From assembly GCA_022600235.1 (NCBI GenBank), contig JAHZKS010000061.1, positions 1 through 28,237 on the forward strand: a stretch of DNA of 28,237 bases. The letters run 5' to 3'. The first letter of the stretch is position 1. Every line of letters begins with the position of its first letter. The position numbers and the translations under genes are program-made. This DNA is from Alphaproteobacteria bacterium. Its GTDB lineage: Bacteria; Pseudomonadota; Alphaproteobacteria; Rickettsiales; JABSSG01. Below, piece by piece: positions 24,897 through 28,237 of the stretch. Below the pieces are notes generated by a model. It had not been told where the DNA came from, made no database searches, and saw only the letters and a program-made list of their open reading frames with translations.

Positions 24897-25547
24897 ATGC
24901 AAATTATTTCTCACAGAATTAACAGAATTGAAGAACTCAGCAAAGTGCAGTTTGACCATGGCATTGAAATTGATATAAGGTCTCATGGTAAAGACTTGAT
25001 ACTTCAACATGACCCTTTCTATGATTACAAAAACCCACCTGAAAAATTTGAAACTTTATTATCTGAATATATAAAAACTCATAAAGGAATTATTATACTC
25101 AATATTAAAACTGAAGGAATTGAGAAAGAGTGTATTAATTTGATGAATAAATATAACTACAAAGATTGGTTTTTTCTAGATTTATCCATGCCTTATTTCG
25201 TCACCTACTCAAACAAAGCCTATTTGGGGACCACAGAGGGACTTACCCCCAATAATCTTGCCGTAAGGTTTTCTGAATTTGAACCTATTGAATATGCATT
25301 GTCTTTCAAGAATAAAGTGAAATGGGTTTGGGTAGATTGCTTTACACAAATGCCTTTAAACAAAAAAAATTATAGACAATTAAAAGAAGCTGGCTTTAGA
25401 ATATGCCTTGTTGCTCCAGAATTACAAAAACATACTAATAAAACAGAAGAGTTCCAGAATATTATTAAAGATAATAATATTAGATTAGATGCAGTATGTA
25501 CAAAAAAAGCTATATTATGGCATAAATTAGATAATCATAACCTATAA
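24897..25547 (+). CDS. PLC/GDPD-like phosphodiesterase TIM-barrel protein
   Basis: N-terminal SHR, GIEIDIR, L.HD, NIK, plus WVWVDCF, SP-like APELQ and DAVCTK. Confidence 0.68.
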   Translation: MQIISHRINRIEELSKVQFDHGIEIDIRSHGKDLILQHDPFYDYKNPPEKFETLLSEYIKTHKGIIILNIKTEGIEKECINLMNKYNYKDWFFLDLSMPYFVTYSNKAYLGTTEGLTPNNLAVRFSEFEPIEYALSFKNKVKWVWVDCFTQMPLNKKNYRQLKEAGFRICLVAPELQKHTNKTEEFQNIIKDNNIRLDAVCTKKAILWHKLDNHNL

Positions 25548-25553
25548 AATAGA

Positions 25554-25952
25554 ATGATAGTTAGCTTGTTAAAAAGCAAAGTAAGCACTGAGTTTTATAA
25601 ATTTATTATTGTTGGATCTTACTCAACGATAATAAATTATGGAATATTTTATATCTCTCTTGAGCTTCTGCTTATCAATTACATAATAGCATCTGCTATC
25701 GGTTTTATATCAGGAGTATTTGCAGGATACAGCTTTAACAGGAAATGGACCTTTAGTATAAGATCAGAAAGGAAAAAAATAGAAATTATTCAATACTATA
25801 GCGTGTATATATTCTCACTAATCTTAGGACTGTTATTATTAAAAATATTTGTTAGTGTTGTTAATATAGATCCTAAGGTAGCAAATATAATAGCTATAGG
25901 CATTACAACATGTACTAATTTTATCGGCATCAAAATGGTTGTATTCAGATGA
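25554..25952 (+). CDS. GtrA family polyprenyl-P-sugar translocase-like protein
   Basis: KFIIVG..ST.INY, A..IGF..G....Y..NRKWTF and four TM segments. Confidence 0.9.
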   Translation: MIVSLLKSKVSTEFYKFIIVGSYSTIINYGIFYISLELLLINYIIASAIGFISGVFAGYSFNRKWTFSIRSERKKIEIIQYYSVYIFSLILGLLLLKIFVSVVNIDPKVANIIAIGITTCTNFIGIKMVVFR

Positions 25953-28105
25953 AAGAAATACCTAAAGAAGTGTTAGTTGATAAATATGGAAATAACAAGA
26001 TAAGAGCTATACTGACTTCTAATCTTTTTTGGATTGGCTTTGCTATTAAAATGGTATTTGCCTTTACATTAGCATCTAACTTTCTAACAAACCTATTTAT
26101 TCCATTCACAAATTATTATGTTCAAAGCGGATTCTCAAACCCGTATAAGTATTTTGCAAATGCAGATCAAGTTGATTTCTTTCCATACCCTGCATTAATG
26201 CTCTATATAATGAGTATTCCAAGAATATTGTTTAGCTTGGTTGCGAATTGGGACAATATTTCTCCTGCAACTATTTTTCTGTCACGATTGCCCATTTTAT
26301 TGGCAGATTTTTTGATTCTGATTATTTTATTCCGGTTAATAAAGAAACATTCTCAAAAGATCCTTTTTTATTACTGGCTCTCTCCGATATTAATTTATAT
26401 CAATTATATACATGGGCAGCTCGATGCAATCCCAATATCTATATTGTTCATTTCTTTATACTTTCTTTTTAAAAGAAAGTTTGAATGTTCTTCTCTTTTT
26501 CTAGGCTTAGCAATTGCTGCGAAAACATCCATAGTTATTGTGTTACCTTTCTACTTTTCTTATTTGTTATATTCAAACACCATAACAAATAGACAGTTGT
26601 TATTGAATATAATAATTACAGTTAGCAGCTTTTTCATAATTAACATTCCATACATATTCAGTCCTGAATTTATTCAAATGGTTCTAAACAACAGAGAACA
26701 AATGAAAATATTTAATTTGAATTATAATTTTTCAGATGGGAATGTGTTATATTTTTTGCCACTAGCTTATTTGTTCTTGTTTTTTACAGCAATAAATCTC
26801 AAAGTACTTAGTAAAGATGTATACATGATGTTTTTGGGCTTTAGCTTTGGCATCATTGCTTTGATGATCTCTCCAATGCAAGGTTGGTATTATTGGATAT
26901 TACCTTTTTTTGCATATTTTCACTCTAAAAGATCCAATGCAAGATTTGATTTTGCTTCAATGCTTTTCTTATCATTATACTGTTCATACTTTATATATTT
27001 CATGTTAATAAAAACCTCTGATTATATACAAGTTTTACAAATTATACTTCCAGATTTTATTGAAACTCCTAATTTGTATCATTATCTGCAACAAAAAGGA
27101 CTGAACGCAGATAAGATATCTAACCTATCGTTTACCTTACTACAAGCATCTTTAATTGCTAACTGTATTTTCATATATAAACTAGGCATTAAGAGCTATA
27201 ACGCGTATAAAATCTTTTCAAATCCATTTCTATTAGGAATTTGTGGTGATTCTGGATCAGGGAAAACCACTATATCGAAGTCACTAGAATCAATTTTTCA
27301 AAGTAGCAATACAACAATAATTCAAGGTGATGCTATGCATAAATGGGAAAGAGGCAACGAGCACTGGAATAATATAACCCATTTAAACCCTAAATCTAAT
27401 TTATTATATGATGAAATCTCATATCTAAAAGCAATAAAAAACAGAGAAAATATTAGCAGAAGAAACTATGATCATGACACGGGTAAGTTCACTGAAGAGA
27501 AACAATTCAAACCTAGCAATCTAGTGATTTTTGAAGGTTTGCACAGTTTCTACATAAAACAGATGAGAGATTTATATGATCTAAAAATATTTATTAACAC
27601 ATCTGAAGATCTCAGAAAAAATTGGAAGATTAAAAGAGACACTAATAAGCGCGGATACTCTAAAGACAAAATTATAGCACAGATAAACAATAGAAAAGAA
27701 GATTCAGAAAAGTTTATCAAAGCACAGTTAAAATATGCTGATATTATTATAGAGCTTATTCCGTATAAAGGCTTAGAAAAAGAACATGATGTTTCAAAAC
27801 TACTTCTTAGAATAACTGCATCTAATTCGTTTTATTTAGAACCTCTATTCAACGAACTCACACATATAGACTCTGTTCAAATCAAACATGAATATGAAGA
27901 TAAAGATAGGCAGTTTATAGAAGTAAATGGAAATATATCTGCACAAAAAATTGATGCTATTGCTTATAATTTATCTTTGAGTATAGATCTTGAAGACTTA
28001 GGGATAGACCAGCCATCATGGAATGAAAATTATATTGGAATAATACAACTATTTATCACATATTGTGTGATGAAGAATTTAGGCTTAGAGAAAGAAAATA
28101 AATAG
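25949..28105 (+). CDS. Fusion: GT-C membrane glycosyltransferase (GT87/PIG-M-like) plus phosphoribulokinase-like P-loop kinase
   Basis: aa 1-424 are multi-TM with FPYP, SP..IY.....GQLD, LGLAIAAK and WYYWILP. From aa 425 it has GICGDSGSGKTT, D..H..ER, Y.H.TG, EGLH and WKI.RD...RG....I...I..RK.D...FI..Q..YAD. Confidence 0.88.
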   Translation: MKEIPKEVLVDKYGNNKIRAILTSNLFWIGFAIKMVFAFTLASNFLTNLFIPFTNYYVQSGFSNPYKYFANADQVDFFPYPALMLYIMSIPRILFSLVANWDNISPATIFLSRLPILLADFLILIILFRLIKKHSQKILFYYWLSPILIYINYIHGQLDAIPISILFISLYFLFKRKFECSSLFLGLAIAAKTSIVIVLPFYFSYLLYSNTITNRQLLLNIIITVSSFFIINIPYIFSPEFIQMVLNNREQMKIFNLNYNFSDGNVLYFLPLAYLFLFFTAINLKVLSKDVYMMFLGFSFGIIALMISPMQGWYYWILPFFAYFHSKRSNARFDFASMLFLSLYCSYFIYFMLIKTSDYIQVLQIILPDFIETPNLYHYLQQKGLNADKISNLSFTLLQASLIANCIFIYKLGIKSYNAYKIFSNPFLLGICGDSGSGKTTISKSLESIFQSSNTTIIQGDAMHKWERGNEHWNNITHLNPKSNLLYDEISYLKAIKNRENISRRNYDHDTGKFTEEKQFKPSNLVIFEGLHSFYIKQMRDLYDLKIFINTSEDLRKNWKIKRDTNKRGYSKDKIIAQINNRKEDSEKFIKAQLKYADIIIELIPYKGLEKEHDVSKLLLRITASNSFYLEPLFNELTHIDSVQIKHEYEDKDRQFIEVNGNISAQKIDAIAYNLSLSIDLEDLGIDQPSWNENYIGIIQLFITYCVMKNLGLEKENK

Positions 28106-28106
28106 A

Positions 28107-28237
28107 ATGGAAAAAGATATAAAAAATTTGGTTCATATATCAAAGCAAATAGGGTTGCATCCAGATTTTGTTCAAGGTGGAGGCGGCAATACTTCAGTCA
28201 AGATTACTGATGATCTTATGGCAATTAAAGCCTCTGG
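28107..28237 (+). CDS. Class II aldolase/adducin family protein, 5' part only
   Basis: MEKDIKNLVHISKQIGLHPDFVQGGGGNTSVKITDDLMAIKAS(G) carries the GGGGNTS.K and IKASG motifs. ATG is 1 nt after the upstream stop and the ORF runs off the window. Confidence 0.85.
   Translation, partial: MEKDIKNLVHISKQIGLHPDFVQGGGGNTSVKITDDLMAIKAS

Follow-up and report, generated by a model that had tools for sequence, protein, structure and literature searches.

A GtrA and GT-C::phosphoribulokinase operon as part of a candidate mobile cassette for the transfer of an unusual five-carbon sugar

The closest described relatives of the locus reported here are the Gtr systems of O-antigen glucosylation (GtrA, GtrB and a serotype-specific GT-C transferase), ArnC/ArnT and CsbB/GtcA/YfhO. 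Lipid-linked pentose donors are known from mycobacterial decaprenyl-P-arabinose and from the pentofuranose systems of Citrobacter youngae O1/O2, which comprise a PRPP-dependent polyprenyl-phosphoribose synthase, a MATE flippase, a GT-C transferase of family GT136 and an optional epimerase (Kelly et al. 2024, PMC11127046); ribulose, xylulose and phosphoribulokinase (PRK) are not mentioned in that work. In haloarchaea, ribulose 1,5-bisphosphate (RuBP) is known to be converted to ribulose 1-phosphate (Ru1P), on which a class II aldolase then acts (Sato et al. 2022, PMC9700705). For E. coli O95/O97, no genes are known for the activated xylulofuranose donor (PMC7685785).

The window analysed here, a stretch of 28,237 nt that is an entire contig, ends in four tightly coupled plus-strand ORFs encoding a GDPD-like TIM barrel, a GtrA-family protein, a fusion of GT-C and phosphoribulokinase domains, and the start of a class II aldolase. 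With the Gtr-type systems this locus and its relatives share a GtrA-family protein accompanied by a GT-C-fold transferase, a GT2 (in the relatives) closest to ArnC, GtrB and DPMS, and a compact mobile operon of patchy distribution. They depart from those systems in several respects. A complete phosphoribulokinase is joined to the GT-C, the short GT2 is devoid of the C-terminal transmembrane helices of GtrB, and a second variable polytopic protein is usual. There are, in addition, a GDPD-like barrel, a HAD phosphatase, an enzyme of class II aldolase fold and a pair of dedicated nucleotidyltransferases, which suggests that the donor sugar is produced by the cassette itself and not taken from the UDP-glucose pool. 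As in the Citrobacter and mycobacterial systems, the donor would come from the pentose-phosphate pool, be lipid-linked and be transferred by a GT-C enzyme outside the membrane, and in both cases the kind of sugar may be changed by an auxiliary enzyme; however, the cassette showed no PRPP use, UbiA-type synthase, MATE flippase or DprE-type epimerases, and its entry would be via PRK from ribulose 5-phosphate (Ru5P), followed by nucleotidyltransferases and a GT2. On balance, it seems reasonably likely that we are dealing with a Gtr/Arn-like three-component periplasmic glycosylation system with its own donor-sugar pathway from Ru5P, the four ORFs being, as part of the same reading, the 5' half of a horizontally mobile cassette of 8-9 genes. 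The probable function of the cassette is to synthesise an unusual five-carbon sugar and attach it, through a route that is as yet undescribed, and our literature search found no paper on such a cassette.

Operon layout and the end of the contig

The operon is preceded by an AT-rich intergenic region of 179 nt (24718..24896), on the other side of which a glycosyltransferase-like gene runs divergently on the minus strand (23311-24717). A consensus promoter scan of this region was not above chance (19 found, 25 expected), so that it can only be presumed to be the promoter region. The barrel protein (24897..25547, + strand, 216 aa, stop TAA), referred to as PDE, is separated by 6 nt from the GtrA gene (25554..25952, +, 132 aa), which overlaps the fusion gene (25949-28105, +, 718 aa, stop TAG) by 4 nt (ATGA); a single nucleotide then separates the fusion from the N-terminal part of the aldolase-fold enzyme (28107..28237, +), which is open to the contig end after 43 aa. 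This tight coupling, as given in the initial annotation of the sequence, was borne out, and so were the family assignments of all four ORFs, those of the barrel and of the aldolase fragment as probable ones.

Because the window is the whole contig, the operon is ended by the assembly and not by biology. No GT2 is encoded by the ORFs of the window, and none of the downstream genes of the cassette, GT2 included, was found elsewhere in the assembly of this genome. Evidence for a continuation of the cassette in this organism comes from two other contigs: C103, of the same genome, begins with the C-terminal 299 aa of a polytopic protein that is 42-45% identical (E 1e-55) to the protein following the GT2 in the related loci L042 and L043, and a Logan contig of the source sample (6,426 nt, equal depth) extends about 5.85 kb beyond the end of the window.

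The encoded proteins and their folds

PDE, a cytoplasmic GDPD/PLC-like TIM-barrel protein, had no Pfam, NCBIfam or PDB match by sequence. Its AF2 model is a confident TIM barrel (pLDDT 95), for which the best Foldseek matches are GDPD/GlpQ structures, with TM-scores of only 0.65-0.72. Conservation is complete or almost complete at H6-R7, E24, D26 and H38-D39, and H6, R7, E24, D26, R28 and H38 are the same in all of 25 homologues. Asn69 appears to occupy the third metal ligand position of the GDPD motif. In the variant cassettes L023 and L025 a canonical PF03009 GDPD stands in place of PDE, and a GDPD-superfamily protein, present in 45 of 49 loci, is a near-constant member of the cassette.

The GtrA-family protein, a small membrane protein with about four hydrophobic segments, matches PF04138 (GtrA_DPMS_TM) with E 7e-25 and 87.9 bits (cut-off, 26.1 bits), and is a candidate flippase or membrane partner for a GT2 lacking transmembrane segments; in other bacteria it is joined to the N-terminus of the GT-C::PRK protein (P0053, P0100). 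The 718-aa protein genuinely combines two domains. Its membrane domain (25949..27223, +, residues 1-425) has a GT-C fold, with VIA-align Z scores for residues 15-425 of 28.4 to 9wno (Gpi14, GPI mannosyltransferase I), 26.3 to ALG3, 25.9 to ALG6, 18.9 to ArnT and 18.0 to PimE, besides a PF03155 match (E 6e-6). Invariant features of this domain are the FPYP motif, D120 and HGQLD155-159; in its first outer loop no strictly invariant acidic residue was found. The logic of a GtrA protein acting with a GT-C transferase, proposed initially, holds.

The cytoplasmic half of the fusion (27218..28105, +, residues 424-718) is a complete phosphoribulokinase domain (PF00485, E 3e-43) whose best PDB matches are PRKs (Z 28.6 over 279 residues to 9qko, 26.6 to 5b3f). 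In NCBIfam it scores 209.3 bits with phosphoribulokinase NF005655 and 96 bits with uridine kinase, each below the curated cut-off (236 and 220 bits, respectively). The whole fold, including the C-terminal sheet domain, is present (Z 26-29; Foldseek TM (target) 0.80), and invariant positions include the P-loop, D461/H464/R468, Y507/H509 and K560/R563/D564/R568. Among these, the residues of the catalytic dyad and the Ru5P site (D461, H464, R468, H509, K560, R563, D564 and R568) are conserved in all of 23 homologues. In an alignment with cyanobacterial PRK, D461/H464/R468 and H509 fall on the motifs DDYH..DR and YNHETG, and the Asp/His catalytic dyad of PRK, as defined in PMC9978339, is present. 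With the PRKs of cyanobacteria, plants and archaea (9qko, 6hzk, 5b3f) it has in common the whole fold, the P-loop, the dyad and the motifs D-x-x-H-x-x-x-R and K-x-x-R-D-x-x-x-R; it differs from them in being tethered to a 12-helix-class GT-C domain, in being found in heterotrophs and symbionts and in scoring just under the NCBIfam cut-off for PRK. By family score, fold and motifs, the fusion kinase is of the PRK type and not of the uridine-kinase type.

The aldolase fragment of the window (43 aa) matches PF00596 below the cut-off (E 0.009; 16.4 against 22.2 bits), shows the motif QG-GGN-S-K ... IKAS that is invariant in the family, and is 67-72% identical to the N-termini of full-length proteins in relatives. 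These (290-355 aa; PF00596, 56.5 bits) retain the Zn-binding His triad along with the catalytic Glu (E103, H117, H119, H176), and belong to a longer subfamily that is nearest to the N-domain of bifunctional aldolase/SDR proteins. The HAD phosphatase of the relatives has RuBP 5-phosphatase as its best NCBIfam family (184 bits, the next best reaching 108), at a score below the equivalog cut-off of NF053830 (330 bits). Its gene is absent from the window's operon. When this genome (80% complete) and three further carriers of Rickettsiales type were searched with the HAD profile, no clear orthologue came up; one of these carriers gave only a weak match (E 2e-8). Some cassettes have no aldolase, and some have no HAD.

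A RuBP 5-phosphatase-like HAD together with a class II aldolase-fold enzyme is what the haloarchaeal non-carboxylating pentose bisphosphate pathway also contains (PMC9700705), and their co-occurrence implies RuBP and Ru1P as intermediates. The two differ in that RuBP would be formed here by PRK from Ru5P and is formed in haloarchaea from nucleosides via R15P isomerase, in that the context is biosynthetic (glycan) in the cassette and catabolic in haloarchaea, and in that the cassette aldolase is from a longer subfamily and the HAD is missing in this window. The retention of PRK-specific residues and the affinity of the HAD to RuBP 5-phosphatase agree with the original suggestion that the sugar-phosphate enzymes form a branch supplying an unusual donor derived from pentose phosphates.

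Related loci and the complete cassette

The gene order is conserved across phyla. Downstream sequence of at least 4 kb was available for 43 related loci, and in these two paralogous nucleotidyltransferase-like (NTP) genes occur in 40, the aldolase in 40 and a short GT2 in 36; of the seven loci without GT2 according to BLAST labels, three have one NTP-like gene only. The closest relatives (69-72% identity) have the order PDE-HAD-GtrA-fusion-aldolase-NTP-NTP-GT2. The GT2 (235-258 aa) has ArnC, GtrB and DPMS as its best PDB matches, and no transmembrane segment was found in it; for one of the nucleotidyltransferases, NTPb, one weak NCBIfam match is to an inositol-1-P cytidylyltransferase. A second, variable polytopic protein is usual. 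Both flanks could be read in 34 loci, of which 29 combine PDE, fusion and aldolase and 13 contain all four families, in line with the co-occurrence predicted at the outset. On two further points the initial annotation did not survive: it had the sugar-phosphate enzymes replacing a GtrB-type GT2 and the donor bypassing an NDP-sugar, whereas the genes past position 28237, read in the relatives, are aldolase, two NTP-transferases and an ArnC/GtrB/DPMS-like GT2. The UbiA-type prenyltransferase or synthase that was also to be looked for there, and likewise a MATE flippase, did not turn up when conserved cassette genes, including part of the flanking genes, were compared with Pfam, and LicD, TagF and CDP-alcohol transferase were not seen among the conserved genes either.

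Gene fusions link the components further: GT-C::PRK::aldolase in Patescibacteria, NTP::GT2 in L029 and L048, and NTP::NTP in an E. coli plasmid cassette. The families co-occur in Rickettsiales-like MAGs, a spirochete symbiont, Patescibacteria, Bacteroidota and an E. coli IncR plasmid, the last of which (33 kb) carries the entire cassette adjoining IS26, and the cassette was found in only one of 40 relatives of this genome.

Proposed pathway and competing explanations

In the pathway that we propose, the cytoplasmic PRK domain would phosphorylate Ru5P at C1, giving RuBP, from which the HAD phosphatase, present in most relatives and nearest to archaeal RuBP 5-phosphatase, would release Ru1P. The Zn-dependent class II aldolase-fold enzyme would then remodel the ketose 1-phosphate, most likely by epimerisation, since some cassettes do without this enzyme. 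The two nucleotidyltransferase-like proteins, as a heteromer or in two successive steps, would activate the sugar phosphate, the GDPD-like barrel acting somewhere around this part of the pathway. The GT2, of the ArnC/GtrB/DPMS type, would load the sugar on polyprenyl phosphate with GtrA as its membrane partner or flippase, and the GT-C domain of the fusion and/or the second polytopic protein would transfer it to a surface glycan outside the membrane; with two polytopic proteins per cassette, either may carry out the final transfer. In this genome the steps from nucleotide activation onwards are placed past the contig end. A point against this pathway is the non-anomeric phosphate of Ru1P, a compound from which a sugar-1-P-type nucleotidyltransferase and a GT2 would have to make a glycosyl donor.

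If this pathway is correct, phosphoribulokinase has a second widespread role beyond carbon fixation, in starting the synthesis of surface-glycan building blocks, and a new sugar-activation pathway is used by bearers as different as ultra-small Patescibacteria, sponge or worm symbionts, Bacteroidota and an E. coli plasmid. The cassette is a concrete candidate for the activation of rare five-carbon sugars, possibly pentuloses, a question open in the E. coli O-antigen literature, and a portable glycoengineering module. Given that the whole of it resides on a small E. coli plasmid, the pathway is directly testable at the bench.

A more specific scheme, which we advance only tentatively, is that the cassette provides the missing route by which residues of pentulofuranose (xylulose or ribulose) come to be part of bacterial glycans. 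After conversion of Ru5P via RuBP to Ru1P and optional epimerisation by the aldolase-fold enzyme, one nucleotidyltransferase and the PLC/GDPD-like barrel would shift the phosphate to the anomeric C2, for instance via a 1,2-cyclic phosphate; the second nucleotidyltransferase would form an NDP-pentulose, which the GT2 would load on polyprenyl phosphate for GT-C transfer. Such a scheme would account for the two nucleotidyltransferases and the phosphodiesterase-fold protein and, if true, would fill the donor gap of E. coli O95/O97.

The same non-anomeric phosphate, predicted by the PRK/HAD logic, can be read in another way, namely that nucleotide activation takes place at the primary phosphate of Ru1P or of a derivative, as in CDP-ribitol, CDP-choline and CDP-6-fructose, and that a pentulose or pentitol phosphate head-group is put on a glycan or lipid, the GDPD-like enzyme handling the phosphodiester. 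The near-constancy of a GDPD-superfamily protein and the match of NTPb to an enzyme acting on a non-anomeric phosphate are consistent with such a decoration, and related nucleotidyltransferases activate phosphocholine and fructose-6-P. Phosphodiester transfer nevertheless appears unlikely to us in view of the full glycosyl-transfer set of the cassette (GT2, GtrA and GT-C), the existence of NTP::GT2 fusions and the fact that no LicD, TagF or CDP-alcohol transferase was seen among the conserved genes.

It is quite doubtful, too, that this is an ordinary Gtr-type system adding a common sugar such as glucose, with PRK, HAD and aldolase serving regulation, membrane scaffolding, GT-C dimerisation or carbon supply. 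GtrA, GT2 and GT-C do suffice in known Gtr systems (PMC11127046), and PRK, a dimer-forming fold, could merely oligomerise the GT-C domain; but the catalytic and substrate motifs of PRK are invariant across phylum-level distances, and PRK, HAD, aldolase and the two nucleotidyltransferases travel together, variously fused and as one unit on a plasmid. A common UDP-hexose would require none of them, so that these dedicated genes, as far as sequence can tell, argue against such a donor.

In the version of the initial annotation, a lipid-linked pentose or ketose donor arises directly from pentose phosphates, with neither an NDP-sugar nor a GtrB-type GT2 involved. This would resemble the PRPP/UbiA-type route to polyprenyl-phosphoribose in mycobacteria and Citrobacter O1/O2. 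Three-component pentofuranose systems based on PRPP do exist (PMC11127046) and the window has no GT2, but it is merely truncated by the contig end, and in the relatives two NTP-transferase-like genes follow directly downstream, as does a GT2 of the polyprenyl-P type, and neither a UbiA-type synthase nor a MATE flippase was seen among the conserved genes, making this version improbable. A catabolic non-carboxylating pentose-bisphosphate shunt (Ru5P to DHAP and glycolaldehyde) that merely adjoins glycosylation genes is very improbable, for although kinase, phosphatase and aldolase of these types act in that order in haloarchaea (PMC9700705), cassettes lacking aldolase or HAD exist, the kinase forms one polypeptide with a GT-C, which in some lineages includes GtrA as well, and the set sits within surface-glycan clusters and on a small plasmid.

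A tightly coupled operon encoding a GT-C–phosphoribulokinase fusion

From position 24897 to the contig end, four co-directional ORFs are present on the plus strand, with coordinates and junctions identical to those in the initial annotation. ORF1 (24897-25547, 216 aa) encodes a GDPD-like protein and is separated by a 6-nt gap from ORF2 (25554-25952, 132 aa), which encodes GtrA; ORF3 (25949-28105, 718 aa), encoding the GT-C::PRK (phosphoribulokinase) fusion, overlaps ORF2 through an ATGA sequence and is followed after 1 nt by ORF4 (28107-28237), the start of a class II aldolase-fold gene, with 43 codons open to the contig end. 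The tight coupling reported there was thus confirmed, and so were the protein family assignments, by Pfam and NCBIfam searches, structural alignments and comparison with full-length relatives. G+C content is slightly lower in the operon region (28-29%) than in most of the window (30-37%). A scan for promoters and terminators was uninformative, given that 19 promoter-like sites were found against 25 expected and no terminator was detected, and no RNA data set with this stretch was listed.

ORF3 is a genuine two-domain fusion, as judged from an AlphaFold model built with 23 homologues (mean pLDDT 83). Residues 15-425 align structurally to GT-C glycosyltransferases whose donors are polyprenyl-phosphate sugars, including GPI mannosyltransferase I (Z 28.4), ALG3 (26.3), ALG6 (25.9), ArnT (18.9) and PimE (18.0); no invariant acidic residue was found in the first outer loop of this part, in which D/N64 and D/E76-77 are partly conserved. 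For residues 424-716 the structural matches are complete phosphoribulokinases (9qko, Z 28.6; Methanospirillum PRK, 26.6), and by sequence this domain appears PRK-like rather than uridine-kinase-like, scoring 209 bits with the NCBIfam PRK model (below its cut-off of 236) versus 96 bits with udk. Invariant positions across the 23 homologues are, among others, the P-loop, D461-x-x-H464-x-x-x-R468, Y507-x-H509 and K560-x-x-R563-D564-x-x-x-R568; in the alignment, the D461/H464/R468 and Y507/H509 groups correspond to the cyanobacterial PRK motifs DDYH..DR and YNHETG. The Asp/His pair among these residues is the one known as the catalytic dyad of plant-type PRK (PMC9978339). Among solved structures, the kinase domain comes closest to recently released entries of a "cyanobacteria-specific PRK" (9qko, 9qkp and 9qkn), of which one was deposited under the name "uridine kinase", and no publication on these PDB entries was found.

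ORF2 belongs to the GtrA family (PF04138, E 7e-25). ORF1 matched no sequence family in Pfam, NCBIfam or PDB sequence searches, and its model is a TIM barrel (pLDDT 95) that most resembles structures of glycerophosphodiester phosphodiesterases (TM 0.65-0.72), with H6-R7, E24, D26, R28 and H38 as invariant residues. Because the catalytic His is already at residue 6, the protein would carry no signal peptide and is presumably cytoplasmic. ORF4 encodes the N-terminal end of a long protein with a class II aldolase fold. In its full-length relatives (290-355 aa) the catalytic Glu and the three His that bind the metal are retained, and the closest proteins to these relatives are bifunctional aldolase/SDR proteins, in their aldolase half.

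Upstream of the operon, the opposite strand carries glycosyltransferase-like, formyltransferase-like and two unassigned genes, followed by mnmG, rsmG, parA and parB. The divergent cluster (20285-24717, minus strand) encodes a Glyco_trans_1_2-like protein of 468 aa, a family-less protein of 315 aa, a formyltransferase-like protein of 281 aa and a 312 aa protein with a weak GNAT match, and it may constitute a second glycan-modification unit beside mnmG-rsmG-parA-parB.

Gene content of related loci and continuation of the operon

Loci encoding a relative of the fusion protein were collected from reference genomes (29 loci) and metagenomes (35 loci), and their ORFs were labelled by BLAST against Pfam-checked references. 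Counts of these loci describe the sample and carry no statistical test, as the same organism sometimes occurs in two collections and related genomes are not independent of one another. Within this sample, two paralogous nucleotidyltransferase-like genes (GxGSRF motif; PF00483/PF12804) were detected in 40 of the 43 loci with at least 4 kb of downstream sequence, an aldolase-fold gene also in 40 and a GT2 of 235-258 aa in 36, while the 49 loci with at least 1.5 kb upstream contained a GDPD-like gene or canonical GDPD in 45 cases, a HAD phosphatase in 43 and a separate GtrA in 19. The families of the window operon therefore do co-occur in other genomes, as the initial annotation had expected. In contrast, its proposal that sugar-phosphate enzymes take the place of a GtrB-type GT2 and that the donor arises without an NDP-sugar is wrong in the relatives, and probably also in this organism. 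In the four loci whose fusion is closest to that of the window (L035-L038, 69-72% identity), reading past the point corresponding to 28237 revealed aldolase, two nucleotidyltransferases and GT2, the full order being GDPD-like gene, HAD, GtrA, fusion, aldolase, nucleotidyltransferase, nucleotidyltransferase and GT2.

The best solved relatives of the GT2 are ArnC, GtrB and archaeal DPMS, all of them polyprenyl-phosphate glycosyltransferases, and in the related loci the GT2 has no TM segment. For the HAD protein, the best NCBIfam family is ribulose-1,5-bisphosphate 5-phosphatase, at 184 bits with the next family at 108 and a cut-off of 330. Gene fusions tie the parts of the cassette together: GT-C::PRK::aldolase in Patescibacteria, GtrA::GT-C::PRK in Flexibacter and others, a nucleotidyltransferase fused to GT2 in two loci (L029 and L048), and the two nucleotidyltransferases fused to each other on an E. 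coli plasmid. Beside these genes there is usually one for another polytopic protein, 500-630 aa long (L009, 15436-17001; L002, 5546-7325; L026, 13821-15398; L043, 13338-14987; L050, 14999-16879); it is not conserved between lineages, has only weak PMT_2, YfhO or EpsG matches and, by analogy with GtrC in Gtr systems, may be a variable acceptor-specific component. In variant cassettes (L023, 12085-12807, and L025, 6665-7387, both from Bacteroidia; also L056 and L066) a canonical GDPD (PF03009, E 2e-27) takes the place of the GDPD-like barrel as well as of the aldolase-fold gene, and a search of the L023 and L025 genomes with the aldolase profile gave no match.

The window is the entire contig C97 of a 0.9-Mb assembly in 119 contigs that is 81% complete, and tblastn searches of this assembly with the aldolase, nucleotidyltransferase, GT2 and HAD proteins of three related loci (L002, L003 and L007) yielded no match outside the window. 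Another contig, C103 (L070), opens in the middle of a gene (1-900, plus strand) for a polytopic protein, of which it encodes the last 299 residues. These share 42-45% identity (E ~1e-55) with the C-terminal half of the polytopic protein encoded after GT2 in loci L042 and L043. Housekeeping genes on the other strand come next, and the start of C103 is probably the far end of the window operon. The window DNA was also found in sponge metagenome runs, and in the probable source metagenome (run X1) a Logan contig of 6,426 nt overlaps window positions 27661-28237 at the same depth as the window (15.3) and extends about 5.85 kb past its end. Taken together, the C103 tail and the Logan contig suggest that the operon continues past the contig end; to judge from the Logan contig, its missing part would lie in public data, unbinned.

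The HAD gene is absent from the window operon, in which only 6 nt separate the GDPD-like gene from gtrA (25547-25554); loci L035-L038 have a 222 aa HAD gene at this position, which is a real difference from the window. Searches with the HAD profile found no clear orthologue in the 81% complete genome or in three other Rickettsiales-type carriers, one of which gave a weak match (E 2e-8).

Some features of individual loci were also recorded. Three downstream genes of about 255 aa had been considered as SDRs, an assignment that was dropped since Pfam gives two NTP-transferases and a GT2. In a Rickettsiales MAG, which carries the closest locus among reference genomes (L007, 10001-13039, 71% identity), the fusion gene is broken into two ORFs and so is the aldolase gene, which may reflect long-read assembly frameshifts or pseudogenes. 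Two cassettes contain an inserted gene: in L010 (5788-6144) it is that of a 23S rRNA intervening-sequence protein (PF05635, checked) and separates the aldolase from the nucleotidyltransferases, and in L017 (14754-15119) a 122 aa ORF of the same BLAST cluster is located between the second nucleotidyltransferase and GT2.

A possible donor pathway and its relation to known systems

GtrA, the ArnC/GtrB/DPMS-like GT2 and the GT-C domain would form the membrane parts of a three-component periplasmic glycosylation system, for which the soluble proteins would supply a dedicated donor pathway. Because the PRK domain keeps the catalytic and ribulose 5-phosphate-site residues, it would convert this compound to ribulose 1,5-bisphosphate, and because the HAD protein is closest to ribulose-1,5-bisphosphate 5-phosphatase, it would yield ribulose 1-phosphate; on these grounds we infer, as the initial annotation did, that the donor originates from pentose phosphates. 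Ketose 1-phosphates are typical substrates of class II aldolase-fold enzymes. The aldolase-fold enzyme seems dispensable for the core route, given that the L023 and L025 cassettes are devoid of it and their genomes have no profile match, and therefore a change of sugar identity, such as epimerisation, would fit better than an obligatory cleavage. The two nucleotidyltransferases could act either as a catalytic/regulatory heteromer or in two successive steps. Since the phosphate of ribulose 1-phosphate is not anomeric, at least one unprecedented step would be required to reach a glycosyl donor. We infer all these enzymatic steps from the families, folds, residues, gene order and fusions observed. 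Kinase, phosphatase and aldolase, the first three enzyme types of this scheme, also follow one another in the non-carboxylating pentose bisphosphate pathway of haloarchaea (PMC9700705).

The cassette would work similarly to the Gtr and Arn systems, from which it is set apart by the fusion to PRK, a GT2 devoid of TM segments, a sugar pathway of its own and a second, variable polytopic protein. In the literature, the closest idea is that of the three-component pentofuranose system in Citrobacter O1/O2 and of mycobacterial DPA synthesis. Both start from PRPP with a UbiA-type synthase and use a MATE flippase (PMC11127046); no such part was seen among the conserved cassette genes, and that work mentions neither PRK nor ribulose nor xylulose. 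Full-text literature searches (PRK with GtrA, GT-C, DUF2029 or undecaprenyl; ribulose 1-phosphate with nucleotidyltransferase) found no description of the cassette, which appears to be undescribed. Strains known for glycans with xylulofuranose are E. coli O95/O97, Yersinia enterocolitica O:5,27 and Campylobacter jejuni RM1221. According to a review of E. coli O-antigens, genes for the activated xylulofuranose donor of O95 and O97 were not found (PMC7685785), and the cassette is a candidate for these missing genes.

Distribution and mobility of the cassette

At least 150 clusters (50% identity) match the fusion protein over both domains with E < 1e-97; at E <= 1e-30 the number rises to 809, a count that includes plain PRKs. 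The fusion was present in one of 40 relatives of the source genome and in none of 10 from the same family, and an Olavius spirochete symbiont has a protein with 66% identity to that of the window. In the phage collection the fusion protein gave only short kinase-domain matches, and no match was found in viral contigs. A complete eight-gene cassette lies beside IS26 on a 33-kb IncR plasmid in E. coli from human stool (L031, NZ_CP145712.1, 6022-14984), comprising genes for the fused nucleotidyltransferases, GtrA, GT2, a PLC/GDPD-like protein, GT-C::PRK, HAD, aldolase and a 587 aa polytopic protein. The large family size, the patchy distribution, the identity to the spirochete protein and the plasmid copy point to horizontal mobility. 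An identical copy of this cassette is present on a plasmid of E. coli ES3 from a bullfrog, and among 5,426 complete E. coli genomes the cassette was detected in two, both times on plasmids of about 33 kb, so that it is open to experimental test in E. coli.
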